39,190 nucleotides of DNA from a virus, in IMG/VR virus record IMGVR_UViG_3300034141_000061, positions 1 to 39,190 of that record; one strand, 5' to 3'. A model generated the notes under the pieces. It made no database searches. It was not told the origin of the DNA and saw only the letters and a program-made list of their open reading frames with translations. Positions 10,336 to 36,884 of this stretch are shown here, piece after piece (positions within the stretch are counted from its first letter, which is position 1; every line of letters starts with the position of its first letter). A program made the position numbers and the translations under genes.

Positions 10336-10590
10336 ATGGAAAACGTTAACGCCCCGGCCCCCGTCCCCGCCGTCGGCCTGGTCCCGGACCAGATGCAGAT
10401 GGACTGCCCGGTCTGCGCGGTCAGCCATGTGCTGACGCGCGGTCTCGATTACGACGAGGACCCGTCCGGCGTGTGGCGCTGCACCGAGGCCGGCGGCTTC
10501 GTCGACACATACGAATGCGATTGCGGCGTGATGCTGACCTTCGCCTTCACCGTGACCCTCCTCCCCGCCCCGCAAAAGGCCGCCGCATGA
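10336..10590 (+). CDS. Small Cys-rich protein (possible zinc ribbon)
   Basis: 84 aa with a CPVC ... C ... CDC arrangement. ATGA overlap with the next gene; high GC3. Confidence 0.55.
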   Translation: MENVNAPAPVPAVGLVPDQMQMDCPVCAVSHVLTRGLDYDEDPSGVWRCTEAGGFVDTYECDCGVMLTFAFTVTLLPAPQKAAA

Positions 10591-13301
10591 CCCGCGCCTG
10601 TCACAGCCCCGTCCGCATGGCGACGGGCGACGCCTTCTCCGACGCCGAAATCGACGACATCCTGGACCGGCTGCTGCGCAAGGCGCAGCGCAAGGGCCAG
10701 GCCTTCGACCGGGCGGCCCTGAACGAGGCGGCGGCGGAGCTGACCCGCGAACAGCTGATGGGGGTGTTGACCGAGCGCCGCCTGAAGCTGGCGGGCGAGC
10801 GGGCCAAGGCGCGGCTGGACGTGGAGCTGACCGCCATGGGGCCTGCGATCGGAGACGAGGCCGACAAGCTGAAGGCCCTGAATGTCGGCAGCGAGCGGCA
10901 GGGACTGGGCGCGAGCTATTCCGTGGACGCCGACACCCGCGGCCGCACCATGGCGCTGTGGGGCGAACAGGAGCGGCTGCTGCGCGAGGCCGGGCTGATG
11001 GACCGGCTGACGGGCTTCAAGGTCGACGACGCGTTCGAGCTGAACATCCGGCGCGAGCGAGCGCGGTTGAACGGCCAGGCGATCGAGCCCACAGGCGACG
11101 CCGACGCCCTGAAGGTCGCCGAGATCATGAACATCGGGTCCGAGAAGGCCCGGTTGATGCAGAACGACGAGGGCGCCTGGATCGGACGGATCGAGGGCTA
11201 CCAGGGCCGCCAGATCCATGACCGGCTGCGCGTGTCAGGGGGGTTCTGGCGCGAATTCCAGAGCGGCGGCGTCGGCACCCTGGCGGACTTCAAGGGCGCC
11301 AGCCTGAAAGCCAGTCGAAAAGCGTTCCGCGAATGGCGGGACGAGATCAAGCCGCGGCTGGACGACCGGACGTTCGAGGGCATCGAGGCGCGCGATGTGG
11401 ACGAGGGTTGGCTGGACGACGCGAAGGCGTTGAAGGCGTCGGGCGCGATCGACGACGCGGGCGATGTCCGCGAGGTGTTTCTGTACCGCGCCTGGTTCGA
11501 CATCGTCAGCGGCAAGAGCGAGGGCTTGGGCGGAGCCGACGACATCGGCGACTTCCGCCCGCCGGCGTCCAAGGCCCGCAGCGTGTCGAAGTCGCGGGTG
11601 CTGCACTTCAAGACGCCCGACGACGCCCACGCCTATCACCAGAGGTTCGGCCGCGGCGCGCTTCTGGCCAACCATATGGCGGAGCTGGAGCGGGCCGCCG
11701 GAAACAGCGCCCTGATGCATCGCTGGGGCCCGGCGCCCGAAGCCGGGTTCCAGAACCGTCTTGCCGCCCTGCACGCCGAGGCGCGAGCCCGCGGAGATAC
11801 GGGCGCGGCCGACAAGCTGATGGCCGCTCAGCGTCGCGCCGAGTTTGAGGAGGTGGCGGGGTTGGGCAACGCGCCGGACAATATGCGCCTGGCAGTCATC
11901 GGCCGGTCGATACGGATGCAGCAGAGCCTGGCCAAACTGGGCGGCATGGTCCTGTCGGGCCTGTCGGACACCAGCCTTTCGGCGCAGGCGATGAAGCGGG
12001 CAGGCGCCGGGTTCCTGGACGGCTATTCCGGCGCTTTGGGCGGGATCGCGCGGATGCAATCGGCCGAGGGCAAGGCGGCGGCCGACCTTCTGGACGTCGG
12101 CGCCCGTTCGGCGGCGGCGCAGATCACGGGACGGTTCCACGCGGCGGACGGGCCGCTGGGCTGGACGGCGGCGATCCAGCGGACGTTCTACAAGGTCAAC
12201 CTGTTCCAGTACTGGCAGGACGGCCTGAGGCGCGGCGTCGGCGAGATGTACGCCGCCCACCTGGGAACCGAGGCTCGGCAGGGCTGGAGCGCCCTGCAGC
12301 CGGGCACGCGCGAGACCATGGAGCGGTATGGCATCGGCGAGGCCGACTGGGAGCTGGCGCGCCGCGGCCTGATCGACCCGGAGGTGAAGACCGAGGGGTT
12401 CCGCGGCCTCCGCGACGTCGAGACGGATGGCGACAACGGGCGCATGTATTTCACCTTCGAGGCGCTGGACGGCGTGTCGGACCGCGACCTGCTGAAGCGC
12501 GCGGGACTGGCGGGCGCGGAAGCAACGCCAGAGGCCGCGCGCCGGATCCGAGAAGACCTGCGCCTACGCTTTCAGGCCATGGTGACGGGCGTGCTGGACG
12601 ACGCCATGACCGAAGCGCGCGCCCGCGAGCGGGTGGCGCTGACGCGCGGCACGCGGCCGGGCACGGTGTGGGGCGAGGCGGTTCGCAGCTTCACCCAGTT
12701 CTGGAGCTTTTCCGCCGCGATCATGGGCCGCCACGTCATGCCGGCGGCGCGGGGATATTCGGGTGCCAAGCCCGTTGCCCTGCTGGGCCACCTGATCCTC
12801 GCCTCGACCGTGCTGGGCTATGCGTCCCTGCAGGCAAAGCAAATCGTCAAGGGCCGCGAGTTCCGCCCGCTGACAGATGACGAAGGCGAGTTTAAGGGCG
12901 GCGAGCTGTTCATGGCGAGCCTGCTGCAGGGTGGCGGGCTGGGCATCTATGGCGACTTTCTGTTCGGCGAGGCGAACCGGAACGGCCTCGGCTTCACGAT
13001 CGGGTCACTGGGCGGGCCCGCCGTCAGCGAGCTGGAGCGGCTGGCGACGATCATCCGCAAGACGGCCAGCGGCGACCCTGAGCAACTTGAGGACGTGCCG
13101 GCAGACATGATCAACGGCGTGAAGGCCAACACGCCGTTTCTGAACCTGTTCTATGTCAGAGCGGCGCTGGACTATCTGGTCTTCTACCGGATGCAGGAAG
13201 CGATCAGCCCCGGCAGCGTCGAGCGGTACGAAAAGCGGGTGGAGAAGGAAACCGGCGCCGGCTTTATCGTCAGCCCGTCGGAGAGCATCGGAGCCAGCTA
13301 G
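10587..13301 (+). CDS. Large virion/ejection protein with C-terminal hydrophobic segments
   Basis: 904 aa from ATG 10587 (ATGA overlap; the track start 10473 lies in Arg-rich sequence). C-terminal hydrophobic stretches are PVALLGHLILASTVLGYASL and FMASLLQGGGLGIYGDFLF. It lies between the SLT protein and the fibre genes. Confidence 0.5.
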   Translation: MTRACHSPVRMATGDAFSDAEIDDILDRLLRKAQRKGQAFDRAALNEAAAELTREQLMGVLTERRLKLAGERAKARLDVELTAMGPAIGDEADKLKALNVGSERQGLGASYSVDADTRGRTMALWGEQERLLREAGLMDRLTGFKVDDAFELNIRRERARLNGQAIEPTGDADALKVAEIMNIGSEKARLMQNDEGAWIGRIEGYQGRQIHDRLRVSGGFWREFQSGGVGTLADFKGASLKASRKAFREWRDEIKPRLDDRTFEGIEARDVDEGWLDDAKALKASGAIDDAGDVREVFLYRAWFDIVSGKSEGLGGADDIGDFRPPASKARSVSKSRVLHFKTPDDAHAYHQRFGRGALLANHMAELERAAGNSALMHRWGPAPEAGFQNRLAALHAEARARGDTGAADKLMAAQRRAEFEEVAGLGNAPDNMRLAVIGRSIRMQQSLAKLGGMVLSGLSDTSLSAQAMKRAGAGFLDGYSGALGGIARMQSAEGKAAADLLDVGARSAAAQITGRFHAADGPLGWTAAIQRTFYKVNLFQYWQDGLRRGVGEMYAAHLGTEARQGWSALQPGTRETMERYGIGEADWELARRGLIDPEVKTEGFRGLRDVETDGDNGRMYFTFEALDGVSDRDLLKRAGLAGAEATPEAARRIREDLRLRFQAMVTGVLDDAMTEARARERVALTRGTRPGTVWGEAVRSFTQFWSFSAAIMGRHVMPAARGYSGAKPVALLGHLILASTVLGYASLQAKQIVKGREFRPLTDDEGEFKGGELFMASLLQGGGLGIYGDFLFGEANRNGLGFTIGSLGGPAVSELERLATIIRKTASGDPEQLEDVPADMINGVKANTPFLNLFYVRAALDYLVFYRMQEAISPGSVERYEKRVEKETGAGFIVSPSESIGAS

Positions 13302-19353: not shown

Positions 19354-20769
19354 CTAAGTGCCGAGGGCCTTCACCCAGCCCGTCGCGTCCATGTGCGCGC
19401 CCATCTTCCTCGCCCCTGACCGGCCGACGGCGCGGCCGCCCGTGCCGTAGTGTTTCGACCATACCGCCAGCACCCGCGCGTGATCCTTGTGCAGGCTGCG
19501 CTTGCAGACTTCGGCGGCGGTCATGTCGGCGTCGTGCGCCAAGGTGATGAAGGTGTCGCGGGTGTCCATGAAGTCGAAGGCGCCGTTGAATTCCGAGCCG
19601 TCGACGCCGTCGCCGGTCAGCAGGCTGGGGACGGTCAGCGCCGCGTGTTCGCGCACCGCGCGCCAAGCGTCGTTGAAGGCGCGGTTCGTCCAGACCCCCG
19701 AGCGGTTGCGCGGGCTGGCCTCGCGCACGATCAGGTGCGTCGGCGTGACCTTGGCGTCGGCGTTGCGGGCGATGATCCGTTCGATACAGGCCTCGCCGAT
19801 CGTCAGCAGGGGGATTTCCGAGCTGGCCACGCCGGTCTTGGCGCGGCTGACGCGGGTGATCGTCCAGCGGACCACGCCGTGTTCGTCGGGCTGACGCGCG
19901 AGACGGCGCCAGTCGAGGGCCAGCAGGTCCTTCAGCGACCAGCCGAGGTCGAGCGCCAGCAGCACGGCGTCGCCGATGCTGGGATAGCCCAGCCGGGTGG
20001 CGGAGGCGACGATGGCGGCCAGCTCCTCCTGCGTCCCGACGCGGATCTTGCCGAGCGGCGGCGCGCGGTCGATCAGCTCGACCGGGTTGGCGGACATGGC
20101 GCGGATGCGCTTTTTCTTCCAGCACCAGCTGATGAAGACCGAGGCGACGGACAGCACGCCATAGGCCATGTCGTGGCCGCGGTTCGCTAGCAGCCAGCGA
20201 TAGGCGTCATCGAGCGGAAATTCCGCGTCCTCTTCCTCAGGCACCGCCAGCGTCTCGATCGGCAAGGCGCGCACTGCGGCCAGCTTGTCGGGGTCCGCGC
20301 TCTCGACCAGGGCGACCTGCAGCACATGGATTTTCGACCGGTAGTCGGCGGCCGTTGAAGGGGCCAGACCGCCCTGCCCGCGCGCGAGCGTGAAGCGCGG
20401 GCCCTGCAGCCACTCGTCCACCAGCGCCCCGATAGACCGCTTGTCGGCGCGCTGGGCGGGCGTCAGGGCCGTTCCCTCGACCGCACCGGGCGGAGCGAAG
20501 GCGGCCATGTCGGCGGGGACGGGCGACCCCTTCAGGGTCCATGCGGACACGGCGGCGTTGATCGCCTTGCACCGCTCGATCGCGTCGCCTTGGGAGAGCC
20601 AGAGTTTGTCGCCCCGCGCGGTGACGGTCGCGAAGTCGAACGGCCGCCAGCCTTGGCGGCGGCGCGTCGGGCTGGGCAGCCAACGCGGGCGGCCGTCGCG
20701 CCAGTCGAAACCGGCGGGCAGGACACCATGCGGGCGCTGGCGGCGTTTGGTGGGCTGGCGCTTGCTCAC
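19354..20769 (-). CDS. int: Tyrosine-type site-specific integrase
   Basis: 471 aa from GTG 20769 with AGGAGA 6 nt upstream; the ATG 20853 start would overlap the upstream gene. The C-terminal DTRDTFITLA ... HKDHARVLAVWSKHYG resembles the box II region (R ... H ... Y) of tyrosine recombinases. It is adjacent to the tRNA-derived attP. Confidence 0.8.
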   Translation of the reverse strand: MSKRQPTKRRQRPHGVLPAGFDWRDGRPRWLPSPTRRRQGWRPFDFATVTARGDKLWLSQGDAIERCKAINAAVSAWTLKGSPVPADMAAFAPPGAVEGTALTPAQRADKRSIGALVDEWLQGPRFTLARGQGGLAPSTAADYRSKIHVLQVALVESADPDKLAAVRALPIETLAVPEEEDAEFPLDDAYRWLLANRGHDMAYGVLSVASVFISWCWKKKRIRAMSANPVELIDRAPPLGKIRVGTQEELAAIVASATRLGYPSIGDAVLLALDLGWSLKDLLALDWRRLARQPDEHGVVRWTITRVSRAKTGVASSEIPLLTIGEACIERIIARNADAKVTPTHLIVREASPRNRSGVWTNRAFNDAWRAVREHAALTVPSLLTGDGVDGSEFNGAFDFMDTRDTFITLAHDADMTAAEVCKRSLHKDHARVLAVWSKHYGTGGRAVGRSGARKMGAHMDATGWVKALGT

Positions 20770-20803
20770 GGCGCGTCTCCTGATCGGGGCGAAGGTAGCG
20801 GGC

Positions 20804-21109
20804 TCAGGCTTCTGCGGAAAGCAGCAGGTCCTGCACGCCGGTCGCGACGCCATCCTTGACGGTGTTGAAGGTGGTCAGCACCGGATCGTCGGGCGCCGCG
20901 GCCTCTAGCGCCGCGACCACGGGGCCAGCTGCGGCCACGACGGTCGCCAGGTCCGCGACCGCGGCGGTGCGCAGGGCCGTCTCCGACGTGGTGGCGACGG
21001 CGCGGGTGACCCCGTCCTGATCCAAGCCGGAGGCCTTGAACTGGCGGAACAGGGACTTGCGGATTGCGCGGCGCACGCCGTCGACGAAAGCGTCAGTAGC
21101 CTCGGTCAT
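20804..21109 (-). CDS. Hypothetical protein (101 aa), last gene of early-left operon before int
   Basis: ATGA overlap with the upstream gene; high GC3; no motif. Confidence 0.6.
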   Translation of the reverse strand: MTEATDAFVDGVRRAIRKSLFRQFKASGLDQDGVTRAVATTSETALRTAAVADLATVVAAAGPVVAALEAAAPDDPVLTTFNTVKDGVATGVQDLLLSAEA

Positions 21110-24393: not shown

Positions 24394-25122
24394 TTATTCG
24401 CCCCTGAGGCCGATCGCATAGACGCCTGCGACGTCGGCCAGCGGGTACTTCAGCTGGCGCTCTTCTGGCCAAAGCTCGGTGACGGTCAGCGTTTCGTCGT
24501 CGTAGTGCTCGAACCGCTTCACCAGCTTCGATCCGTCCTTCATCTCAATGACGCAGCCCTGTCCGCGCCGCGGCGGATGGTTCGGGTTGTAGGTGACGAA
24601 CCCGCCGCTCTCAGCGTAAGGGTACATCGACATGCCGCCCAGCCGCAGGATCCGCGTGCCGTTGGCGAAGTAGCGGGCCAGATCGATGACCTCGCCCGCC
24701 TCTTCATCGTTGATTTCCGGCCGCAGGGCTCCGCCATGGGCAACCCCGCCGCTGGGAAGCTGATAGGCAGCAGCGAATGGGCGAGCTCGGGCTGACAGGC
24801 CGCGCGAGACGCCGCGGTCGCCTTCGTCGGCAGGGATGCGGCTCAGCTCGAAATCGAAGGCTTCACGGCTGGCCCCCAAGGCGGTCAGGAGCTTGTCCAG
24901 TTTAGGGTCGCTGAAGTTGCGGTCGCCGTTCTCGTAGTTCTGCCAGGCCTTGTAGCTGCTGAAGCCGGCGGCCTCAGCGGCAGCCGTCTGGCTGAGGCCC
25001 AAGCGGCCGCGCAACGCCTTCAGCGCCAGCCCCTTGCGCTGACGGTCGGCGGCCTCGCGATCCCGGAACCCGTTCATTCGGGGGTTGGGCCACGACTCGG
25101 TTCTGATTGCTACCAGCGACAT
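24394..25122 (-). CDS. CI-like repressor: XRE-type HTH plus S24 (LexA-like) autopeptidase domain
   Basis: 242 aa from ATG 25122 with GAGG 6 nt upstream (GTG 25128 is also possible). The HTH is LRGRLGLSQTAAAEAAGFSSYKAWQNYENG. The S24 Ser motif is GGMSMYPY (Ser codon 24628-24630) and the Lys is in SKLVKRF. The gene is divergent from a Cro-like gene. Confidence 0.85.
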   Translation of the reverse strand: MSLVAIRTESWPNPRMNGFRDREAADRQRKGLALKALRGRLGLSQTAAAEAAGFSSYKAWQNYENGDRNFSDPKLDKLLTALGASREAFDFELSRIPADEGDRGVSRGLSARARPFAAAYQLPSGGVAHGGALRPEINDEEAGEVIDLARYFANGTRILRLGGMSMYPYAESGGFVTYNPNHPPRRGQGCVIEMKDGSKLVKRFEHYDDETLTVTELWPEERQLKYPLADVAGVYAIGLRGE

Positions 25123-25149
25123 ATCCACCCTCGCCGTAGCATGGACCTG

Positions 25150-26066: not shown

Positions 26067-26227
26067 GCCCGCCCGACGAAGCGCGGCTGCGCGCCTGGCT
26101 GGAATATGTCGCCGACACCGCGATCGAGATGCTGGACGCGCTCGATGCGGCCATGTCCGACCACGAGCCGGACGGCGAGGACGAGGTGGTCTGCGCCGAG
26201 GACACGGGCCGGAGGCTGCGCGCATGA
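26063..26227 (+). CDS. Hypothetical acidic protein (54 aa)
   Basis: ATGA overlaps on both sides; in frame inside track ORF 25730..26227. Confidence 0.5.
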   Translation: MSPPDEARLRAWLEYVADTAIEMLDALDAAMSDHEPDGEDEVVCAEDTGRRLRA

Positions 26228-26931
26228 CCGCGCTGGCCCTCGCTCGCATCCCTGCCCTGCCGCCGGTCACGCCGCGCGTCGGTTCGCCCCGCCGGGCCGC
26301 GATCCTGACCGCGCTGGCCGCGGCTGCCGTGCGCGACGGCAACCTGAAGGCGGTGCTGGTGCTGGCCCGCACCGGGCGGCCCCGCAGCCTGTTCACTTGC
26401 GCCGGCGGTTTCCGCTGGCTGGCGATGGCGGGGCTGAAGGCGGTCTATCCCGACGCCAACGACGCGGCCCTGAGGGCTGCGCTGGGCTGCCGGCCGTCAC
26501 GGGACAACCGGCCGCGCGCGGCGCTGCGCGAAATCTGGCCGGATGACGCGGTCGAGGCTGTGGCGCGGGCCGTGGTGGAGAACGAGGACGCCCAGCTGAC
26601 GGCGAGCTGGGTCTGGCCCGAGGCCTGCGCCATCGCCGCGGCCCACACCGGCGCCCCGGTCCAGGCGGTGCAGACGCCGCCGGGCACGCGGGGATGCCAG
26701 CCGCACGCGATCAGCAGCGCGCGGAAGCTGGCCGTGTACCTGACGATGACCGAGGGCGACGTGAACGCCACGGCCATGGCGGCCGCGACCGGCTTGGACA
26801 AGTCGACGGTGCGGCACGCCGTCGACCAGCTGGCCGACCGGCGGGACGACGATCCACAGCTGGACGAGACGCTGGAGACTCTGACGACGCAGCTGCGCCA
26901 GCGGCTGGACGAGGATCTGGGCCAGTGGTGA
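26224..26931 (+). CDS. Replication-initiation candidate with DnaA domain IV-like C-terminal HTH
   Basis: 235 aa. PHAISSARKLAVYLTMTEGDVNATAMAAATGLDKSTVRHAVDQLADRRDDDPQLDETLETL runs parallel to the E. coli DnaA C-terminus ([47 protein letters not shown]...). It heads the replication module. Confidence 0.55.
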   Translation: MTALALARIPALPPVTPRVGSPRRAAILTALAAAAVRDGNLKAVLVLARTGRPRSLFTCAGGFRWLAMAGLKAVYPDANDAALRAALGCRPSRDNRPRAALREIWPDDAVEAVARAVVENEDAQLTASWVWPEACAIAAAHTGAPVQAVQTPPGTRGCQPHAISSARKLAVYLTMTEGDVNATAMAAATGLDKSTVRHAVDQLADRRDDDPQLDETLETLTTQLRQRLDEDLGQW

Positions 26932-27845
26932 CCGATCCGTTCATTATCGACGGGCCGTGCCTTTGGTCCTTCAGCGGCGGCCGGACGTCGGCTTACATGC
27001 TGTGGCGCGCGCTTCAGGCCTATGGGGGCCAGCTTCCCAGCGATCATGTCGTCGCCTTTGCGAACACTGGGCGCGAGCACGACGAAACCCTGAAGTTCGT
27101 GGATCGCTGCGCAACCCACTTCGGCATCAACGTTGTTTGGCTGGAAGCGGTCACCCGCCACAATCAGCGCGCCTCGTCCGGTCACCGCATCGTTTCGTTC
27201 GAAACAGCATCGCGCGCCGGCGAGCCGTTCGAGCAGATGATCCAGAAGTACGGGATCCCGAACAAGTCGTTCCTCCACTGCACGCGAGAGCTCAAGGCGA
27301 ACGCGATCAAGTCCTATCTACAGGATGGCCTTGGTTGGCTGCCGAACTCCTACAAGACCCTCATAGGCATCCGCGCGGATGAAGCTGACCGGGCAACGAA
27401 TGGTGCGGCGGGCGTAGAATACCCGCTGGTTAGAGCTTGGGTTCGGAAAGCGGATGTCTACAGCTTCTGGAAACGGCAGCCCTTCGATCTTTATATCCCC
27501 GAGGAGCTTGGCAACTGCCTCGACTGTCACAAGAAGTCGTTCCGCAAGCTGCTGACGATCGCCGCGCGTCAGCCAGAAGTGTTCGACTGGAGCCGGCGAA
27601 TGGAGGCCCAGTACGGGCTTGTCGGAGCCGAATTCCGAAAGCTTGAGCGCCCGGCCGCTGGCTATCGTCGCGTGTTCTTCCGCAATGGCATGTCGGCTGA
27701 CGACATTGTCGCCCGTGCCAAGCTTCCCTTCGAACCTTTCGTCGACGGGCGGCAGGCCTACGACCCTGATATGGACAGCAGCGGCGGCGCTTGCGGGGAA
27801 GAGAGCTGCGAGATTGACGATCTTTTCTCAGGGGCAGCGGCATGA
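26928..27845 (+). CDS. PAPS-reductase-family (PP-loop ATP pyrophosphatase) protein
   Basis: About 305 aa from GTG 26928 (or GTG 26925). PP-loop motif SFSGGRTS at about 26967-26990. C-terminal Cys pairs are NCLDCHKKS and CGEESC. A/T-ending codons are visibly more frequent than in flanking genes. Confidence 0.7.
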   Translation: MTDPFIIDGPCLWSFSGGRTSAYMLWRALQAYGGQLPSDHVVAFANTGREHDETLKFVDRCATHFGINVVWLEAVTRHNQRASSGHRIVSFETASRAGEPFEQMIQKYGIPNKSFLHCTRELKANAIKSYLQDGLGWLPNSYKTLIGIRADEADRATNGAAGVEYPLVRAWVRKADVYSFWKRQPFDLYIPEELGNCLDCHKKSFRKLLTIAARQPEVFDWSRRMEAQYGLVGAEFRKLERPAAGYRRVFFRNGMSADDIVARAKLPFEPFVDGRQAYDPDMDSSGGACGEESCEIDDLFSGAAA

Positions 27846-28960
27846 CCGACCCCCGGCCCCTCCCCTATGCCTGGGACGACGTGAAGGAGCGGCTGCGCAT
27901 CAGCCTGCCCGACGTCGTCGCGCGGCTGGGCCTGACCTACGCCCAGCGCGACAGCGCGCCGGTGTGGTTTCCGCTGAACCCGACCCGCAACGACAAGAAC
28001 CCCGGCAGCTTCTGCATCTGGAGCGGGACCGGCAACTTCAAGGAGTTCGCGGGCCTGCCTGCCAGCGGCGACGTGTTCGACCTGATCGCCTATGTCGAAG
28101 GCCTGCACGGCAAGATGGACGCCTACTGGCGGGCTCTGGAGCTGCTGGGGCTGGGCCGCGGCGAGGTGCGCACCAAGAGCCAGGACCTGCAGGCGCGCGA
28201 GCGGGCGGCGAAGGACGCGGCGGCGCGGGCGGCGAAGAACACGGCGGCGGCCGAGGCCGAAAGCCGCAAGCTGTTCGGCCTGTGGCTGGGCCTGCCGCCG
28301 ATCGCGGGGACGCCGGCGGAGCACTACCTGCGCGGGGTGCGCAGCCTGCCGATGGAGCGGCTGGCGCATCAGCCCGGGGCCCTGCGCTGGGCCCGGTCGG
28401 TCGAGTGGATCGACGGCGAGACCGGCGAGGTGATCGAGTGGCGCAACTGCATGGTCAGCGCCATGACGCGCGGCAAGGTGCTGACGGCCGTGCACCGGAC
28501 CTTCCTGAACGCCGACGGCACCGGCCCCGATCCCCGCCGCAAGGCCCAGGGCAAGCACAAGACGATGAAGGGCGACCCGAAGGGCGCCGCGATCCGCCTG
28601 AGCGCCGGGCCCAGCGGCCTGAGCCCGACCATGGCCGAGAAGAAGGGCCGCACGGATCCGCTGGCCATCGGCGAGGGGATCGAGACCAGCCTGTCGGTCG
28701 CCTGCGCCCGGCCGGATTACCGCGTGTGGGCGGCGGGTTCGCTGAGCCTGATGGGCCTGCTGGACTGGCCGGCGTGCGCGTCGGCCGTGGTGCTGCTGCG
28801 CGACAACGACTGGAACAAGCCCGCAGCGCAGGCGGCGTTCGACCAGGTGGAGCGCCATTGGCGGGCGCAGGCGCGGGGCCGGCCGGTGGTGGTCGCGGCG
28901 CCGCCGGCCGACGTGGACGATTTCAACAGCTGGGTGATGCAGGGGATGGCCCGTGTCTAG
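27842..28960 (+). CDS. Toprim-domain DNA primase
   Basis: 372 aa. The Toprim Glu motif is AIGEGIETSLSV (about 28669-28700) with DxD in VLLRDNDWN (about 28795-28812). ATGA overlap with the upstream gene. Confidence 0.7.
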   Translation: MTDPRPLPYAWDDVKERLRISLPDVVARLGLTYAQRDSAPVWFPLNPTRNDKNPGSFCIWSGTGNFKEFAGLPASGDVFDLIAYVEGLHGKMDAYWRALELLGLGRGEVRTKSQDLQARERAAKDAAARAAKNTAAAEAESRKLFGLWLGLPPIAGTPAEHYLRGVRSLPMERLAHQPGALRWARSVEWIDGETGEVIEWRNCMVSAMTRGKVLTAVHRTFLNADGTGPDPRRKAQGKHKTMKGDPKGAAIRLSAGPSGLSPTMAEKKGRTDPLAIGEGIETSLSVACARPDYRVWAAGSLSLMGLLDWPACASAVVLLRDNDWNKPAAQAAFDQVERHWRAQARGRPVVVAAPPADVDDFNSWVMQGMARV

Positions 28961-29210
28961 CGCCCTGCGACTGACGAAGACGATGCGCGAGCAAATCGCC
29001 GCCATCCGCGAGGTGCTGAGCCCCTGGGGGCTGGGCACCGCCATACTGAACGAGGGGCCGCACCTGGTGGTGAAGGTCTTCGACCGGCAGGGCCACGGCC
29101 ACCGCCTGACGATCGCCTGCACGCCGAAATGCCGGGGCAGCGCCGCCAACAAGTCCAGATCGGCCGCGCGTCGGCTTCTGCGGTTTCTGAACGAGAGGGA
29201 CGGGTATTGA
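28953..29210 (+). CDS. Hypothetical protein (85 aa)
   Basis: The GTG start overlaps the primase 3' end by 8 nt; high GC3. Confidence 0.5.
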   Translation: MSSALRLTKTMREQIAAIREVLSPWGLGTAILNEGPHLVVKVFDRQGHGHRLTIACTPKCRGSAANKSRSAARRLLRFLNERDGY

Positions 29211-31150
29211 GTATCGACCCGATCAACGCCATCGCCAACGCCCTGCCCACGTTCGAGGACGAGGACGAGCAGGTGCGCGACCTAACGCTGCGCCAGCAGG
29301 CGCAGCTGGACCCGCCAATGGGCGGGCCGATGAACCTGGCCGTCGGCGACGACCCCGAAGACATGGTGGAGCCGGGGGAATGGCGCGACCGGCATCTGAG
29401 CTATCCCACCAGCCTGCCGCTGAACTGCCCGGTGACGCCGTTGGGCAAGCTGGCGACCCTGTCGGGCACGACGTACTTCTTCCTCGACACCTTGGGCGAG
29501 GTGGCGGTGCTGGCGGAGAACGCCGGCAAGGGGAATATCGCCAGCCTGTTCTCTGGCCGCCCGAACTTCCTGCCTTGGGCATGGCCGCGGCGCGGCAAGG
29601 TCGGCAAGGGCTGGGGCGTGACGGGCTGGGACGCAGACGTGTCGCGCAACGACCTGTTCGCGGCCTGCGCCTATATGGGGACGTTCGAGCTGGAGGACCG
29701 CGTGCGCGGCCGCGGCGCGTGGCGGGACGAAGCGGGCGGCCTGATCTATCACGCCGGCGACGCCATCCTGATCGAGGGCAAGTGGCGCCCGCCGGGTGCG
29801 CATGGGCGCTTCATCTATCCGGGGCGGCCCAAGATCGGGCGGCCGGTGCGCAAATACGAGGAGCAGGGCGAGGGCTCGCCCGGCGACGTGTTGTTCCAGG
29901 GCCTGCAATCGTGGACATGGGAGCGCCCGCAGCTGGATCCGCGACTGGCGCTGGGCTGGGTCATGTCGGCGATGGTCGGCGGCGCGCTGGAGCAGCGGCC
30001 GGTGGCCTATGTCGTCGGGACCGAGGGCGCCGGCAAGTCGACGCTGCAGAAGCTGTTCCGCCTGCTGATGAACGGAGCGCTGCTGGCGACGTCGAACACG
30101 ACGCAGGCTGGCATATATCAGAAGGTCAAGCAGGACAGCGTGGCGGTGTTGGTCGACGAAATGGAGGCCAAGGAGGACACGCGGACGACGGACAAGATCC
30201 TGGAACTGGCGCGCGTCGCCTACTCTGGCGACAAGATGCAGCGCGGCGGCAAGGACGGCGTTGGGCAGGAATTCAGCGTCAACTCCAGCTTCCTCATGTC
30301 CTCGATCGCCATGCCGCCCGTCGACGCCCAGGACGCCAGCCGCATGGCCGTGCTGATGCTGCGAGAGCGGGTGAAGGCCGCAACGGTCGATGGCGTGCGC
30401 CCGGCCGACGTGCTGACGACGCTGGGGCTGAAGGACGGCAAGAAGGTCAGCGACATCGGTCGCCAGCTGCTGAGGCGGCTGGTCGGCTGGTTCGAGATCG
30501 AGAGCGGCCGGCCGCGCTGGGATGCGCTGATCGACGCCTTCAGGCTGGCGCTGATCGACAGCGGGCACTCCGACCGGGCTGCGGACACGTTCGGCACTCT
30601 GGCAGCCGGCTATCACGCCGCCATGCGGGACGTCATGCCGGAGAAGGCCGAACTGGACGAATGGATGGCGCTGCTGAAGCCCAGCACGCTGATCGAGACC
30701 AGCGGCCGCGAGAAGACCTGGCGGCGGTGCTTCATCCACATGCTGGACGCGCAGCCGGACGCGCTGCGCACCTTCGCCAAGAAATCCGCGGGCGAGGCGC
30801 TGCTGAACTTCAAGAACAGCCCTCAGAGCAGCGAGGACGTGAACTTCATCCTGAAAATGTGCGGGCTGTCGGTTAGCTGGCCGAAGAACGAGGTGGAGAC
30901 CTGGGCCAACGCCCGCCTGTTCGTCCCCGCCAAGCACCCGATGCTGAACAGCCTGTTCGCCGGCACGCCCTGGGCCGGACGGATGGGCGCGCCCGGACCC
31001 TGGCTGGGGGTGCTGCGCCAGATGCCGAAGCACCTGTGGGAGCCGGGCAAGTGCGGCAAGGGCCTAGACAGCAAGGCCAGCGGTATCTTCATCAGCGTGG
31101 CCGAGGCGCTGGACTGGGACGACGCCGAGGCCCTGCCGATCGCGGCGTGA
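29207..31150 (+). CDS. SF3-type (P4/D5-like) replicative helicase
   Basis: About 647 aa from TTG 29207 with GAGAGGGA upstream; the start is uncertain and the track start is 29129. Walker A is VGTEGAGKSTL (about 30015-30047) and Walker B is AVLVDEME. Confidence 0.7.
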   Translation: MSIDPINAIANALPTFEDEDEQVRDLTLRQQAQLDPPMGGPMNLAVGDDPEDMVEPGEWRDRHLSYPTSLPLNCPVTPLGKLATLSGTTYFFLDTLGEVAVLAENAGKGNIASLFSGRPNFLPWAWPRRGKVGKGWGVTGWDADVSRNDLFAACAYMGTFELEDRVRGRGAWRDEAGGLIYHAGDAILIEGKWRPPGAHGRFIYPGRPKIGRPVRKYEEQGEGSPGDVLFQGLQSWTWERPQLDPRLALGWVMSAMVGGALEQRPVAYVVGTEGAGKSTLQKLFRLLMNGALLATSNTTQAGIYQKVKQDSVAVLVDEMEAKEDTRTTDKILELARVAYSGDKMQRGGKDGVGQEFSVNSSFLMSSIAMPPVDAQDASRMAVLMLRERVKAATVDGVRPADVLTTLGLKDGKKVSDIGRQLLRRLVGWFEIESGRPRWDALIDAFRLALIDSGHSDRAADTFGTLAAGYHAAMRDVMPEKAELDEWMALLKPSTLIETSGREKTWRRCFIHMLDAQPDALRTFAKKSAGEALLNFKNSPQSSEDVNFILKMCGLSVSWPKNEVETWANARLFVPAKHPMLNSLFAGTPWAGRMGAPGPWLGVLRQMPKHLWEPGKCGKGLDSKASGIFISVAEALDWDDAEALPIAA

Positions 31151-31154
31151 TGCG

Positions 31155-31487
31155 ATGCCGGTGAGGCCGGAGAACAGGGCGCGATACCCGGCCGACTGGC
31201 CGGCGATCGCCCTGGCCGTGAAGGAGCGCGCCGGCTGGCGGTGCGAGGGCTCGCCTGCCTACCCTGACTGCCGCGCCGGCCACGGCCACTCGCACCCGGT
31301 GACGGGGTCTCGCGTCGTCCTGACGGCCGCGCACCTCGACCAGCAGCCCGAAAACTGCGCCGACGAGAACCTGCGCAGCTGGTGTCAGCGCTGCCACAAC
31401 ATCTATGACGCGCCGTTCAGGGCTGCGGGGCGCAGAGAACGCCGTCAGGCCCTGATCCACGCCCAAGGCGCGCCAGCGCCCCTCTAA
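31155..31487 (+). CDS. HNH endonuclease
   Basis: 110 aa. The pattern CEG ... C ... AHLDQQPENCADENLRSWCQRCHNIYD is an HNH/Cys-box pattern. The gene is located just upstream of the terminase genes. Confidence 0.8.
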   Translation: MPVRPENRARYPADWPAIALAVKERAGWRCEGSPAYPDCRAGHGHSHPVTGSRVVLTAAHLDQQPENCADENLRSWCQRCHNIYDAPFRAAGRRERRQALIHAQGAPAPL

Positions 31488-31746
31488 CAACAGGACGGCC
31501 CTGCCTGCGCCAGCAGGCTGGGCTGGACGCATCGCCGACTAGGCGATGACCTTCGCCCTTAGCGCGCCACGGCGCGCGCCTGCGCAGCGCCCGCAGGGCG
31601 CGGTGCGCGCAGGCACAGCATCACCTTCAGAACGCCACCCTGACCCGGACCCAAGGCGCTCCAGATGGCCCTCCGTCCATCCCCGACCCGAGCCCGGTTA
31701 GCGAGGATATGGGCGCTGCGCAGGGTCGGGGGAGACCAGGCGACAG

Positions 31747-31984
31747 GGTTCCACGGTTCCGCTGACGGTTCCGGGGAAAGCCCAGCCCGATCATCAACAT
31801 GGCCGAACGTGGAACCGTGGAACCGGTGGAACCGTGCTGCGCCGCTCCATGCGCGAGCAGCAGGGCCGGTTCTCCTACATAGGCGAGGACTAGATGGTTC
31901 CATGGGTTCTATGGTTCCACCCCTGCCGCTGGGCCCGATATCATTGAATATGGGCTGGAACCGCCTCTGGAACTCCGAAGAACC
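31747..31984. repeat. Iteron field: two tandem modules, each with 3 x GGTTCC(AC), a GCCCGAT(AT)CAT-type spacer, then 3 x (GT)GGAACC in inverted orientation
   Basis: GGTTCC at 31747, 31755, 31767. GGAACC at 31811, 31819, 31828. GGTTCC/GGTTCT at 31896, 31905, 31913. GGAACC/GGAACT/AGAACC at 31957, 31969, 31979. Related spacers are at 31785-31802 and 31933-31953, the second AT-rich. The region is non-coding. Confidence 0.85.
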
Positions 31985-32004
31985 CAATAAACTAGGGTCT
32001 GAAA

Positions 32005-32547
32005 ATGAAATCCCCCGTCGCGCCTGCCCTGCCGGGCCTCGCACCGGCGCCCAAGAGAGGGCCGGGCCGTCCGAAAGGATCCGCGAACAAGCGCTCGGGC
32101 GACCTGCAGCGCTACATCGAGAGCACCTATGGCGGGCTGACGCCGGGCCAGCAGTCCGCGGCGGTCGGCCTGGTGACGGCGGCCGAGCTGCGCGCCGACG
32201 GCGGGGACCTGCTGGTGGCCATGGCGCGGAAGGCCGCCCGGCTGGCCACGCTGATCGGGTGCGAGGGCAAGGAGGCGTGGCTGCTGATGCAGCGGGAGCG
32301 GGCCGACCTGCTGCCCTACATCCACCAGAAGCTGCCGCCGAAGGCCGAGGCCGGCCAGGGCGACACGCCGACCCATACGTTCTACGCCGTGCCGATCGAG
32401 GAGACGACGGCGGCCGGCGGCGGCGCGCAGCTGGGCGAGTGGGACACGCCCGCCGACCTCATTGAATATCAAGGGGTTAGCACCGAGCCCGGCGAGCAAG
32501 TCACCCAACCGAAGTCACCTGACGACAACGAACCTGTTGAACCGTAA
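32005..32547 (+). CDS. Terminase small subunit candidate
   Basis: 180 aa immediately upstream of terL and downstream of the iteron field. The N-terminus is basic (KRGPGRPKGSANKRSGDL). Position-based call. Confidence 0.45.
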   Translation: MKSPVAPALPGLAPAPKRGPGRPKGSANKRSGDLQRYIESTYGGLTPGQQSAAVGLVTAAELRADGGDLLVAMARKAARLATLIGCEGKEAWLLMQRERADLLPYIHQKLPPKAEAGQGDTPTHTFYAVPIEETTAAGGGAQLGEWDTPADLIEYQGVSTEPGEQVTQPKSPDDNEPVEP

Positions 32548-32638: not shown

Positions 32639-32700
32639 GAAAACCGGGCCCGTCCGTTTTCCCGTGGGGGGTGCTTCCGGCAGGTTCAACGCCCTCGGCT

Positions 32701-32721
32701 CCGTCCCCCCCCCGTTCTGGC
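32701..32721 (+). repeat. C-rich 21-nt intergenic motif, copy 4: CCGTCCCCCCCCCGTTCTGGC
   Basis: Read directly. It lies upstream of the first plausible terL start (TTG 32769), or inside the ORF if GTG 32664 were used. Confidence 0.9.
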
Positions 32722-32768
32722 CCGGCGAAATTGATTCGGTCGAAACGGGTCAGGGTCAGGGAAAGCGC

Positions 32769-34286
32769 TTGTCGGGCGAAGCGAAGGTCGAGCAGCGGCA
32801 GTGGGGCTTCGCCGGACCGGTGGCGCGACGGTTCGAGTTCGACCGCTCGCCAATCGTGTTTCTGACGGGGCCGACGGGCGGCGGCAAAACCATAGCCGCG
32901 GCGCGCCGGTGTCTTCGTACTGCTCTCTGGCAGCACGCTAGTCCGAGAGACGGCTGGCGTCGAGCCCGGATTTACGTCGTCTGCCCCACCTATCGGATCG
33001 CCTGGGACAGCGTCATCCCCAGCTACCTGAAGGTCTATCCGAAGGAGACCAAGGGCCCGACGTGCGAAGCTGTCTGGAAGGGCGCCCAGGGCGACCCCGC
33101 GACCCACATCGTCCGCTTCCCCGGGAAAGGGCCCGACGGTCAGGGCCCGGTCGAGCTGGAGGTGCGGTTCCGCGCCGTGCAGGACGTCGACCTGGACGAG
33201 TTCTTCCGGGGCAAGGAGTGCACGGCGTTCTGGCTGCCGGAATTCGACACCCATGAGCAGAAGGCGATCCTGTCGTATTGCGTCAACCGGGTCGGGCGCT
33301 TCCCCGAGCCCGACGACCGTCCGATCGATCCGCCGACGCCGTCCTACGCCGGCGTGTGGGGCGACGCGAACACGCCGACGATCGGCAGTTGGTTCCAGAA
33401 GGACTTCTACACCGCCGCCCCGGCGGGCGTGATGGTGCACAAGCAGCCGCCCGGCTATGATCCAGACAGTCCCGACGGCTTCCATGCCCAGGCCGAGAAC
33501 GCGGCCAACCTGAGGCGCATCCGGCCCGACTACTACCGCAACATGGCGGCGGGCATGGAGGAGCACGACGTGCGCCGCCTGCTGCAGTGCAAGCTGACCT
33601 ACGGTCGGATGGGCAAGCCGGTGCACCCGGCCTTCGACGAGACCCTGCATGTCGGACCCCAGGCCATGGAGCCGGACGCCGAGGCCGTGGTGGTCATCGG
33701 CATCGACGTCGACTTCCACGGCGCCGCGTCGTTCGGTCAGCGGGGGATGTTCGGAAGCTGGAATGTATTCGCCGAGATCGTGGCGGCTGACAGCCCCGAC
33801 GGCGAGATGGACGTGATCGAGTTCGCCGACGCCATCGTGGGCGTGATGAAGACCGTGTTCCCGCGCTGCAAGCGGGCGATCATCGTCATGGATCCGGCGG
33901 GCAAGAGCCGTTCGACCCTGAACCGTGGGCTGAGCTGGGCCAGCGAGCTGCAGGCGCGCACCAAGATCACGGTCGTCCCGGCGCCCAGCAATGATCCGAG
34001 GCTACGCCGCGCGGCCATGGCGCGGCCCCTGAAGCGCCGCAACGGCATCCGCTGGCATCCTCGCTGCACCTGGTCGATCACCGCCATGAACGGCGGCTTC
34101 CACTACCCGCAGAAGGGCAATCAGACGTCGATGGTGGCGAAGAAGAACGTCTATTCGTCGATCGGAGAGGCCAACGAATACATGACCATGGGCGGCGAAG
34201 GCGTCGAGGACCGGGCCGGCCTGGTCCCCTATATGGGCATGGGCGCGCCGAGCCAGTCGAACGTCGTGGAAGTGGTGTTCGACTAG
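32769..34286 (+). CDS. terL: Terminase large subunit
   Basis: Walker A FLTGPTGGGKT at about 32860-32892, with ATPase and then nuclease-like halves, upstream of portal. There is no in-frame ATG before Walker A. Start candidates are TTG 32769 (AGGGAAAG upstream) and GTG 32664 (no SD; would translate the C-rich motif). Confidence 0.8.
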   Translation: MSGEAKVEQRQWGFAGPVARRFEFDRSPIVFLTGPTGGGKTIAAARRCLRTALWQHASPRDGWRRARIYVVCPTYRIAWDSVIPSYLKVYPKETKGPTCEAVWKGAQGDPATHIVRFPGKGPDGQGPVELEVRFRAVQDVDLDEFFRGKECTAFWLPEFDTHEQKAILSYCVNRVGRFPEPDDRPIDPPTPSYAGVWGDANTPTIGSWFQKDFYTAAPAGVMVHKQPPGYDPDSPDGFHAQAENAANLRRIRPDYYRNMAAGMEEHDVRRLLQCKLTYGRMGKPVHPAFDETLHVGPQAMEPDAEAVVVIGIDVDFHGAASFGQRGMFGSWNVFAEIVAADSPDGEMDVIEFADAIVGVMKTVFPRCKRAIIVMDPAGKSRSTLNRGLSWASELQARTKITVVPAPSNDPRLRRAAMARPLKRRNGIRWHPRCTWSITAMNGGFHYPQKGNQTSMVAKKNVYSSIGEANEYMTMGGEGVEDRAGLVPYMGMGAPSQSNVVEVVFD

Positions 34287-34971: not shown

Positions 34972-35166
34972 ATGAGCTTCCTGCGCCGCCCGAAGGTCAC
35001 CGCCCCTCCCCGCCCGATTGATCCGGCGGATACGGCCAACCGCGCCGATCAGGTGCGGCAGAAGCGGCTGCGCGGCGGCGGGACCGCATCAACCTTCCTG
35101 AGCCAAGCCGTCGCCGAGGCCGCGCAGGTCGGCCCGCGGCCGACCCTGACGGGTGCCGCCGGATGA
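34972..35166 (+). CDS. Small head-module protein (64 aa)
   Basis: ATG 34972 with GAGGA upstream. ATGA overlap with the portal gene. Basic and Pro-rich. Confidence 0.55.
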   Translation: MSFLRRPKVTAPPRPIDPADTANRADQVRQKRLRGGGTASTFLSQAVAEAAQVGPRPTLTGAAG

Positions 35167-36884
35167 CGACGGCCGCCCAGGTCCAGGTCAGCGACTTCGG
35201 CAAGCGCGTCCGGCGCCATTTCGAAGACGCGCAGCAGCTGCGTCGGATGCACGAGCCCGGCTGGCAGGCCGTCAGCGACTATTTCTACCCGAACAGCAGC
35301 TTCAACATCACGCCCGTGCCCGGCCAGCGCCGCAACCGGCGCGTGGTGACCAACGTGGGGCGCCAGAACCTGACATCGGCGGCCGCGTTGGTGACCGCCT
35401 ATGCGATCGACACCACCCAGCCTTTCCTGACGCCCAACGTCGGCCGGTCCATGGCCCAGAGCGGGCGCGCCGTTTACCGCAAGGGCCCCGACGGTCGGCG
35501 GCTGGACCTAGACGAGGCGTCGCGGGACTATCTCGACGACCTGCGCTGGCAGATGTTCGACGCGCAGATGCTGCCGCAGAGCAACTTCCTGCCGGCGACG
35601 GTGCGGTTCATCCTCGAATTCCTCGGCTTCGGCGGCAGCGTCCAGTGGACGGGCCGCAAGCGCGGGTTCGGACCCCGCTACCAGCACCGCCCGCTGCGCG
35701 CCTGCTGGTGGATCGAGAACGAAGACGGCGAGATCGACACCCTGTTCTTCCAGTGGACGACGCCGGCCCACCGCCTGGTCGAGCGCTACCCTGACGCCGC
35801 CAACCATCCGAAGATCAGGGAGATGGCGGCCGACGACAAGAAGGCCAGCACTCCGATCCGCTGCCTGCACCTGGTGGAGCCGCGCAAGGGCGGCGTCATG
35901 GGCGGCGTGGCGTCCAACAAGCCGTTCGCGTCAAAAGTCTTCCTGCCCGACCACGACTGGTTCGAGGTCAAGAACGAGGGGTACGACAGCTTCCCCTACC
36001 AGATCGCCCGCATGGATCTGTGGGAGGGCTCGCCCTATCCGAGCGGCCTCGGCTTCCAAGCCCTGCCCGACCTGATGGCCATAAACCACTTCAGCGGCGG
36101 GATGGAACGTGCCATCGACCTGATCAACGATCCGGTGCTGTTCGCGCCGACGCGCCTGTTCGGCAACAAGCTGGACCGGCGCCCTGGCACGGTGAACATC
36201 TACGACCCGGTGAACCTGGGCTTCCAGAGCCTGAGGGACGCGATCCAGAAGGCCGAGATCTCCGGCGACCCCAGCTGGGCTGAACGCCGCATCGCCGCCC
36301 TGACGGTCAACGTCGAACGGGTGTTCTTCGCCGACATGATGCGGCTGCGCGACGCGGCGAACGTGACGGCCGAAGAGATCCGCGAGCGCCGCGACCTGCG
36401 CACACGGTCCATGAGCTTCCTGGTCCCCGCGCTCGACCGCGAGCTGTTCGGCAAGTCGGCCGACCGCAGCCTCGAAGCCCTGATGGAGGAAGACCTGGTC
36501 CCGGCCCCGCCGGCGGGCCTGTCGGGCGTCGAGGTCGATTGGGATTACGCCGGGCCGCTGGCCAAGGCGCAGATGCTGACCCAGGTGGACGGCGCCCTGC
36601 GCCTGTTCGACGCCGTCACCACGGCCAAGCAGTTCGACGAGAGCGCCGGCGACGTCGTCGCGGTGCACGAGGCGCTGCGCACCATCAACGACAGCCTGGG
36701 CAACGCGCCAGCCATGCTGAACAGCCGCGAGGCCGTAGCCGCGAAGGCGGAAGCCCGCGCCGAAGCCGAGGCACAGCAACAGCAGAATGAAGCGATGACC
36801 GCGAAGGCGACCGCCCTGCGCGACGCCGGCCAAGGCATCGCCTCGATCGAGAACACCGGACAGCCGGCGGCCATGGCGGCGTAG
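35163..36884 (+). CDS. Portal (head-to-tail connector) protein
   Basis: 573 aa. It lies between terL and scaffold/capsid, and its size is close to T7 gp8 (about 536 aa). Called on position and size. Confidence 0.7.
   Translation: MTTAAQVQVSDFGKRVRRHFEDAQQLRRMHEPGWQAVSDYFYPNSSFNITPVPGQRRNRRVVTNVGRQNLTSAAALVTAYAIDTTQPFLTPNVGRSMAQSGRAVYRKGPDGRRLDLDEASRDYLDDLRWQMFDAQMLPQSNFLPATVRFILEFLGFGGSVQWTGRKRGFGPRYQHRPLRACWWIENEDGEIDTLFFQWTTPAHRLVERYPDAANHPKIREMAADDKKASTPIRCLHLVEPRKGGVMGGVASNKPFASKVFLPDHDWFEVKNEGYDSFPYQIARMDLWEGSPYPSGLGFQALPDLMAINHFSGGMERAIDLINDPVLFAPTRLFGNKLDRRPGTVNIYDPVNLGFQSLRDAIQKAEISGDPSWAERRIAALTVNVERVFFADMMRLRDAANVTAEEIRERRDLRTRSMSFLVPALDRELFGKSADRSLEALMEEDLVPAPPAGLSGVEVDWDYAGPLAKAQMLTQVDGALRLFDAVTTAKQFDESAGDVVAVHEALRTINDSLGNAPAMLNSREAVAAKAEARAEAEAQQQQNEAMTAKATALRDAGQGIASIENTGQPAAMAA

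Follow-up and report, generated by a model that had tools for sequence, protein, structure and literature searches.

A mirror-symmetric array of lineage-specific short repeats at the boundary of the replication and packaging modules in a family of temperate phages: a possible iteron-type origin

The viral sequence IMGVR_UViG_3300034141_000061 (IMG/VR; positions 1 to 39,190, the window, i.e., the whole 39,190-nt stretch that was analysed) carries an array of short inverted repeats in the non-coding gap between a gene for an HNH endonuclease and a small gene located directly upstream of the gene for the large terminase (TerL), on the same strand. We call the small gene terS-like: its 180-aa product is an uncharacterised putative small terminase, assigned by position only. 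A first-pass annotation, made from the letters of the window, had named the pair terS-terL, and of this, TerL holds (Table 1), while terS is a positional assignment. All coordinates and sequences quoted in that annotation proved correct; the HNH gene it recognised matches phrog_1571, and the gap it estimated at about 500 bp measures 517 bp.

Between positions 31747 and 31984, the hexamer GGTTCC or its complement GGAACC occurs nine times without mismatch (starts at 31747, 31755, 31767, 31896 and 31913 on the plus strand; 31811, 31819, 31828 and 31957 on the minus strand) and four times with one mismatch (GGTTCT at 31868 and 31905, GGAACT at 31969, AGAACC at 31979). Elsewhere in the 39 kb, there are 19 copies, which corresponds to 0.116 expected per 238 bp, so that the original count of at least 12 copies against about 0.1 expected was well founded. 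The Poisson probability of nine or more copies is ~1e-14, or ~1e-12 when corrected for all windows of this size. Genome-wide, the array is the top cluster of 6-, 7- and 8-mers and the sole strong cluster of short, iteron-like repeats. A minor secondary cluster (five GGTTCC copies in 650 bp, 11746-12397) lies inside the large open reading frame 10473-13301 and probably reflects coding repeats. Twelve of the 13 copies build four triplets, the blocks B1 to B4, which are separated by the spacers S1 to S3; the remaining copy (31868) lies inside the central spacer, S2 (Table 1).

Table 1. Features of the repeat array, its flanks and the surrounding phage genes (positions in the window).
Feature	Position	Strand	Remarks
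Integrase	19354-20853		
CI-like repressor	24394-25128		
DnaA-domain-IV-like helix-turn-helix protein	26224-26931	+	235 aa; candidate initiator/unit reader; family alignment
Primase	27842-28960	+	DUF7146 + Toprim_3
SF3/D5-like replicative helicase	29129-31150	+	673 aa; second candidate unit reader
HNH endonuclease	31155-31487	+	phrog_1571, E=1.4e-26
Non-coding gap	31488-32004		517 bp; HNH stop (31487) to terS-like ATG (32005)
Three GC-rich hairpins	~31497-31525, 31528-31548, 31578-31614	+	compensatory changes, 13 relatives
Conserved element	31680-31733	+	TCCCCGACCC...GGTTAGCGAGGAT...GGGTCGGGGGA; directly upstream of B1
Block B1	31747-31772	+	three GGTTCC(AC/GC/GG) units; starts 31747, 31755, 31767; spacing 8, 12
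Spacer S1	31773-31808		36 bp; contains GATCATCAACATG; AT-richer than genome
Block B2	31809-31833	-	three GTGGAACC units; starts 31809, 31817, 31826; spacing 8, 9; inverted vs B1, B3
Central spacer S2	31834-31895		62 bp; symmetry centre; contains CATGCGCGAG ... TACATAGGCGAGGAC
Block B3	31896-31920	+	GGTTCCAT, GGTTCTAT, GGTTCCAC; starts 31896, 31905, 31913; spacing 9, 8
Spacer S3	31921-31954		34 bp; GATATCATTGAATATGG island; most AT-rich spacer in family
Block B4	31955-31984	-	CTGGAACC, CTGGAACT, AAGAACC; hexamers 31957, 31969, 31979; spacing 12, 10; mirrors B1
AATAAA island	31986-31991	+	14 nt ahead of terS-like ATG; conserved in most relatives
terS-like gene	32005-32547	+	180 aa; AT-hook GRPKGS arm + five-helix domain
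TerL, large terminase	32664-34286	+	29% identity to BcepC6B TerL
T7-type portal	35163-36884		

The four blocks are mirror images about S2. B3 mirrors B2 with 25-nt arms that are 84% complementary, and the spacing of the units within the blocks is mirrored likewise (8,12 / 8,9 / 9,8 / 12,10). The unit consensus in this phage is GTRGAACC, and B4 ends 20 nt ahead of the terS-like ATG. The first-pass annotation had described two modules, each consisting of three units, a spacer and three inverted units, with related spacers at 31785-31802 and 31933-31953. The spacers are as quoted and the anatomy is right, but incomplete: the deeper rule is the four-block mirror symmetry, which extends to lineages with modules other than inverted repeats.

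Relatives were gathered via 74 terS-like homologs, as loci anchored on the terS-like gene (L001-L034) or on the helicase gene (L043-L124), and with nine contig look-ups; in IMG/VR alone, there are 265 relatives of the helicase. A locus was taken to carry an array when one hexamer occurred at least eight times in the 420 bp that precede the terS-like gene, exceeding every other stretch of that locus. So defined, the layout is conserved in 58 of the 69 non-redundant loci: four blocks of about three units, with a median span of 237 bp and a median count of 10 for the top hexamer. The lineages use 29 different top hexamers between them (e.g., AGAACC, GGAACC, GGGAAC, GCAACC, CCAATC, CCAACC, AAGACA, GTCACA, GGTAAC and GCGTGA). 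Within the inner blocks, 164 out of 168 spacings are 8-9 bp; the outer blocks are looser and mirrored (8,12 vs 12,10), and the B1 block with its spacing is also present in relatives. The orientation of the blocks is mirror-symmetric about S2 in 42 of the 50 parsed loci, and takes one of two forms: alternating, as in the window, or with two co-oriented blocks per side.

The spacers have conserved characteristics of their own. The AT fraction is 0.46 in S1, 0.38 in S2 and 0.57 in S3, against a background of 0.34. The consensus for integration host factor (IHF) is found with at most one mismatch in 30% of the S1 and 30% of the S3 sequences, compared to 1-4% of composition-matched shuffles. In S1, an IHF-like ATCAA-N4-TTR site occurs across the family, and S3 in relatives features IHF-like or A-tract/TATA-rich sequence; the window's own matches are weak (three mismatches in S1). 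In S2, the longest alternating purine/pyrimidine run is on average 15.4 nt, versus 5.9 nt in controls, and it reaches 12 nt or more in 64% of the loci, versus 0.8% of the controls. In relatives, this tract measures 15-28 nt and is often palindromic; that of the window is broken up into runs of 8 nt.

Natural recombinants reveal most clearly with which neighbouring module the unit sequence is inherited. The loci L032 and L021 resemble each other in their packaging genes (terS-like 62%, TerL 69% identical), whereas their helicase cores are only 44% identical. The helicase of L032 is 59-63% identical to those of the clade with RGAACC units, and L032 has the unit type of that clade, AGAACC, while L021 has TCCAACC. 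The junction between the early and packaging modules coincides with the AATAAA island, where a TAAA(C/T)A-ATG sequence is conserved just past B4. Conversely, L020 and L021 share their units and have helicase cores that are 90% identical, with terS-like and TerL proteins of 43% and 53% identity, respectively. Over the N-terminal 56 aa of the terS-like protein, including the arm and the TPGQQLAA helix, L032 and L021 are ~73% alike (by eye); this exceeds the likeness between L020 and L021, the opposite of what is predicted if the terS-like protein were the reader of the units. In these recombinants, the unit type thus follows the helicase module and not terS-like/TerL.

This is coherent with partial Mantel tests of unit distance against protein distance, controlling for the helicase core (43 and 35 loci). 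The helicase C-terminus (residues 501-673) correlates with the units (r=0.24-0.25, p=0.001), and so does a DnaA-domain-IV-like protein encoded upstream (18 loci; r=0.275, p=0.044). No partial correlation with the units was obtained for the terS-like protein (r=0.07-0.08, p 0.13-0.19) or for TerL (r=0.02, p 0.34-0.36). The coupling between units and replication module, as read from the sequences, is of a statistical and historical nature. Furthermore, the units differ between lineages even inside the genus Caulobacter, where two types occur (L031 vs L032), which argues for a phage-encoded reader and rules out a host factor in this role. Arrays mix RGAACC units, and we therefore regard the first base of this hexamer as tolerated degeneracy. 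In the folded domain of the terS-like protein, A53 versus Q53 is the sole fixed difference between loci with GTGGAACC and loci with GTAGAACC units; as a candidate specificity residue, it failed in two out of five new loci, A53 occurring together with AGAACC in L126 and L128.

Two proteins of the early module are candidate readers. The protein encoded at 26224-26931 has an NCBIfam match that falls below the cut-off. It had been described as DnaA-domain-IV-like from the start, and the helix-turn-helix (HTH) is borne out by the motif R.A.YL...TV.H in the family alignment (in extended form, R.A.YL...G...TV.H..VED.RDD), in which the recognition helix is highly variable. Members of this family were found upstream of the helicase gene in 29 helicase-anchored loci; at least 2.5 kb of upstream sequence is available for 66 of the 83 loci so anchored. 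The helicase extends for ~170 residues beyond its ATPase core, and the divergence of its C-terminal 173 aa tracks the divergence of the units. To judge from these sequence relations, the units could be read by one of these two proteins or by both.

We tentatively propose that the array is an iteron-type replication origin of the phage, to which we assign a probability of about 0.42. The twelve binding units spaced at 8-9 bp would constitute two mirrored half-origins, each with three units, an AT-richer, bendable spacer of ~38 bp and three more units, on either side of a central tract rich in alternating purines and pyrimidines. The units would be bound by a protein of the early/replication module (the DnaA-IV-like HTH protein, the C-terminus of the superfamily 3 (SF3) helicase, or both), each half would be folded by host IHF or by intrinsic curvature, and one helicase assembly would be loaded per half, leading to bidirectional unwinding. 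Protein binding, bending, helicase loading and origin activity are all predicted here from sequence; the anatomy of the array, its conservation, the lineage-specific units and their co-inheritance with the replication module are direct observations. The mirror symmetry of orientation and spacing suits a two-fold symmetric loading complex, and the presence of twelve iteron-like units, oriented as two opposed sets and preceded by primase and helicase genes, is in keeping with an origin. An origin was the second of two readings in the first-pass annotation, and it is now better supported by the co-inheritance of the units with the helicase module and by the occurrence of the DnaA-IV-like family across these phages. 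One argument put forward for it finds no support, namely that the units contain the TCCAC core of the DnaA box: no unit is within two mismatches of TTATCCACA, and the units of relatives are unrelated. The sole match to TTATCCACA in the region, TCATCAACA, is in spacer S1, and we have rejected the units as DnaA boxes.

Several observations weigh against an origin. In position, the array is not bound to the helicase gene: the first unit lies 146-2518 bp past the end of that gene (median 427 bp) and ~4.7 kb past it on two contigs (L014/L059, L016/L058), and an array is missing within 3.5 kb of several helicase loci. The symmetry centre, S2, is a GC-rich alternating purine/pyrimidine sequence and not an AT-rich unwinding element, and S1 and S3 of the window are themselves ~55-60% GC. 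In the cumulative GC skew, the extremes lie at 1488 and 31249; the one at 31249 is a maximum, not a minimum, which is terminus-like and speaks, albeit weakly, against a bidirectional origin at the array. As to the coupling with the replication module, the evidence from swaps comes from two predicted-prophage lineages that are possibly defective, and the Mantel signal could stem from proteins differing in their rate or noise.

The closest parallel is provided by the origins of the Staphylococcus aureus pathogenicity islands (SaPIs), where 6-12 penta- or hexanucleotide iterons lie just downstream of the pri-rep gene pair, half of them on each side and in opposite directions (PMC9371898). Shared with the array are short iterons (5-8 nt) with an 8-12-bp period, which form two opposed sets past the genes for primase and helicase. 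In both systems, the sequence of the iterons varies by lineage and is coupled to the replication protein, the reader in SaPIs being the C-terminal domain of the self-loading helicase (PMC9371898). Unlike the SaPI origin, which has two sets around one AT-rich region, the array has four blocks, two internal AT-richer spacers and a GC-rich alternating purine/pyrimidine centre; it is sometimes kilobases away from the helicase gene while always adjoining the terS-like gene, and the phage has a separate DnaA-domain-IV-like protein. A further likeness exists with the octamer iterons of P4 ori/crr. In oriC of Escherichia coli, opposed arrays of DnaA boxes are combined with an IHF site; the phage array similarly has opposed, closely spaced short boxes and IHF-like sites, and the phage encodes an HTH protein of the DnaA domain IV type. 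In contrast to oriC, the units are not DnaA boxes, the phage protein has no AAA+ domain, and no AT-rich unwinding element of the 13-mer type was recognised in the array. Distinctive of the array are its strict four-block mirror geometry, the at least 29 unit variants on one scaffold and a candidate initiator consisting of DnaA domain IV only.

The flanks of the array bear on the alternatives. The GC-rich palindromes noticed upstream in the first-pass annotation are genuine, conserved hairpins: they are kept in 13 loci of the Brevundimonas clade, with changes on both sides at 14 of the 48 predicted pairs (e.g., CCTGCGC/GCGCAGG to CCCACGC/GCGTGGG). They are probably terminators that close the early/replication operon; possibly, they are instead a structured leader or an anti-termination target. 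The element between the hairpins and B1 is kept even in distant relatives, and TAGCGAGGAT reappears as TAGGCGAGGAC just before B3 (31880-31890). Homologs of the HNH gene occur in only four of the fetched related loci, at the same position in L035 and elsewhere in the other three (upstream of the helicase gene in L053 and L061, downstream of it in L072). The HNH gene is thus a sporadic, mobile-like insertion, outside the conserved element.

The product of the terS-like gene has an N-terminal AT-hook, RGRPKGS (match to HMGA, E=0.02), followed by invariant TPGQQ and LLPY.HQK motifs among its 74 close homologs. AlphaFold models (pLDDT, predicted local distance difference test, 68 for the full length and 84 for the core) show a confident five-helix domain. 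Apart from the HMGA AT-hook, the family has no match in Pfam, PHROG, NCBIfam or PDB sequences; Foldseek searches against PDB and BFVD returned hits with E>0.7 only, and there is no similarity to TerS of BcepC6B. We found no paper linking an AT-hook to a small terminase in a literature search, and no isolate in the phage collection searched carries a terS-like gene. A weak homolog (35% identity) is present in the chromosome of a Ponticaulis metagenome-assembled genome (L033, 4001-4282), without array, helicase or TerL nearby; the family may occur outside this phage context too.

A packaging site (cos or pac), the other reading in the first-pass annotation, we judge to be rather unlikely. The twelve units would be recognised by the terS-like protein with its AT-hook, each half would be folded by IHF or by intrinsic bending in S1 and S3, and the cut by TerL would fall within the purine/pyrimidine tract of S2. 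What stands of this proposal is the position: the array always adjoins the terS-like gene (11-203 bp from the last unit), divergent array-bearing loci still carry a terS-like gene with the GRP arm downstream, helicase loci without a terS-like gene in range have no array, and all insertions between the modules fall on the helicase side of the array. The layout parallels that of lambda, where cosN is followed by R3-I1-R2-R1 and then Nu1 (PMC4669245), and that of P1 pac, where two clusters, with 7 hexamers in all, lie on either side of an IHF site and the site of cutting (PMC10028697). In these systems too, opposed clusters of short repeats split by an IHF bend flank the cleavage region, near or in the small terminase gene (upstream of it for lambda cos, within it for P1 pac), and specificity varies among related phages; the variation of the units by lineage is reminiscent of lambda, 21 and N15, each with a packaging specificity of its own. 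The AT-hook and confident helical domain of the terS-like protein are compatible with such a role, as are the conserved AT islands accompanying the array and its GC-rich, partly palindromic centre, reminiscent of a cos nicking site. Unlike lambda cos and P1 pac, the array comprises twelve units that are strictly mirrored across the centre, GATC is absent from the units, and the adjoining protein belongs to no TerS family, by homology or by fold. Above all, the unit type does not track terS-like/TerL: L032 and L021 share the terS-like N-terminus yet differ in their units, L020 and L021 have the same units despite divergent terS-like proteins, the partial correlation is absent, and the one candidate specificity residue failed.

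We have not retained the synteny as decisive proof of packaging, since only insertions upstream of the terminator hairpins would be expressed. The asymmetry of the insertions can be explained simply in this way: accessory genes such as HNH that sit upstream of the hairpins stay part of the early transcription unit. The array invariably closes the early module, and we take its unbroken adjacency to the terS-like gene to follow from this terminal place. Four contigs (L013, L019, L028, L036) end inside arrays; as the positions are inconsistent, we rejected these ends as genome termini and consider them assembly breaks. The argument from an HK97-type order, HNH-cos-terS-terL, did not survive either. 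The window genome does have its HNH gene beside terS/TerL, as at HK97 cos, but most relatives lack the gene and those that have it carry it at varying positions; moreover, HK97 TerS uses one 15-bp A-tract site, 15 bp from the cut, without repeats (PMC11331095), whereas the array consists of repeats.

That the array is a control region of the late operon appears unlikely as well. Bound to the units, the DnaA-IV-like early HTH protein would act together with IHF as a gate for transcription entering terS-like/TerL, a role that could be coupled to read-through of the hairpin terminators. This would account jointly for the fixed position before the first late gene and for a specificity co-inherited with the early module, and the covarying GC-rich hairpins are directly upstream of the array. 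There is a precedent in Caulobacter, where the promoter of the gene transfer agent (GTA) cluster includes a far-upstream GafY element and an IHF site, with anti-termination through GC-rich repeat terminators (PMC11150451). Twelve mirror-symmetric sites over 240 bp with a palindromic centre, however, do not correspond to the needs of directional promoter activation; no sigma-70-like promoter was found, and the 20 nt between B4 and the ATG leave no space for a downstream core promoter. A scan with promoter and terminator consensus sequences and an Rfam search gave no match.

Origin, packaging and late-control roles are not mutually exclusive. Their combination can be envisaged as a dual-purpose gate from replication to packaging, which we hold to be quite improbable: a mirror-symmetric origin, each six-site half of which would load one helicase ring under an HTH initiator made of DnaA domain IV only, with reprogrammable 8-mer specificity, while the same complex, at the edge of the first packaging gene with its AT-hook product, would govern how transcription or terminase enters the late operon. 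If true, a large uncultured family would link replication to late expression and packaging through a single site of 240 bp.

Very improbable is any other cis element, whether an attP with integrase arm sites, a partition centromere or a telomere-resolution site, as is a chance or selfish repeat. The attP sites likewise combine short arm repeats with IHF sites, and the central TATAC(GC)nGTATA-like palindromes of relatives recall telomere-resolution sites of the N15 type. On the other hand, helicase gene, array and terS-like gene are contiguous in chromosomal prophages (L025, in the B. staleyi chromosome; L129, in a 2.7-Mb contig; L031; L032), and the integrase gene is 11 kb away from the array; with integrated prophages unbroken at the array and the integrase distant, attP was rejected. 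Neither protelomerase nor partition genes were seen. Chance is excluded by the Poisson probability given above, and the conservation of the layout over deep divergence argues for a function.

Should the array prove to be an origin, a large group of Caulobacterales phages and related ones, known from prophages and metagenomes only, would gain a defined replication start and a candidate minimal initiator. The scaffold is fixed and comes in nature with 29 or more versions of the unit, a ready series to study how the DNA specificity of an initiator or helicase changes, and it could yield orthogonal origin/initiator pairs for alphaproteobacterial genetics. A caution also follows: an array touching a small terminase gene looks like cos/pac, yet the recombinants tie its specificity to the neighbouring replication module.

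The window represents a complete circularised genome. The assembly is circular, of 39,063 bp, and the exact 127-nt direct repeat at both ends (1-127/39064-39190) is an assembler overlap. It belongs to a temperate Brevundimonas phage with a GC content of 69%, whose relatives are prophages of Brevundimonas/Caulobacteraceae. The GC skew is positive from ~1.5 to 31.2 kb whatever the orientation of the genes, minus-strand lysogeny genes included, and about zero or negative across the packaging and head genes (31.2-39 kb), the switch being at the boundary of the early and late modules.

A literature search on the genome termini of BcepC6B and BPP-1 yielded nothing useful. In BcepC6B, which has a related TerL (L041, NC_005887; L130), the record opens (nt 1-110) with ACGATAGGGACGATAG, followed by an AT-rich section of 75 bp and by CTATCGTCCCTATCGT. 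These repeats lie 52 nt past the primase/polymerase gene and upstream of gp01/terS/TerL, thus forming a simpler, 2+2 inverted module at the same module boundary.

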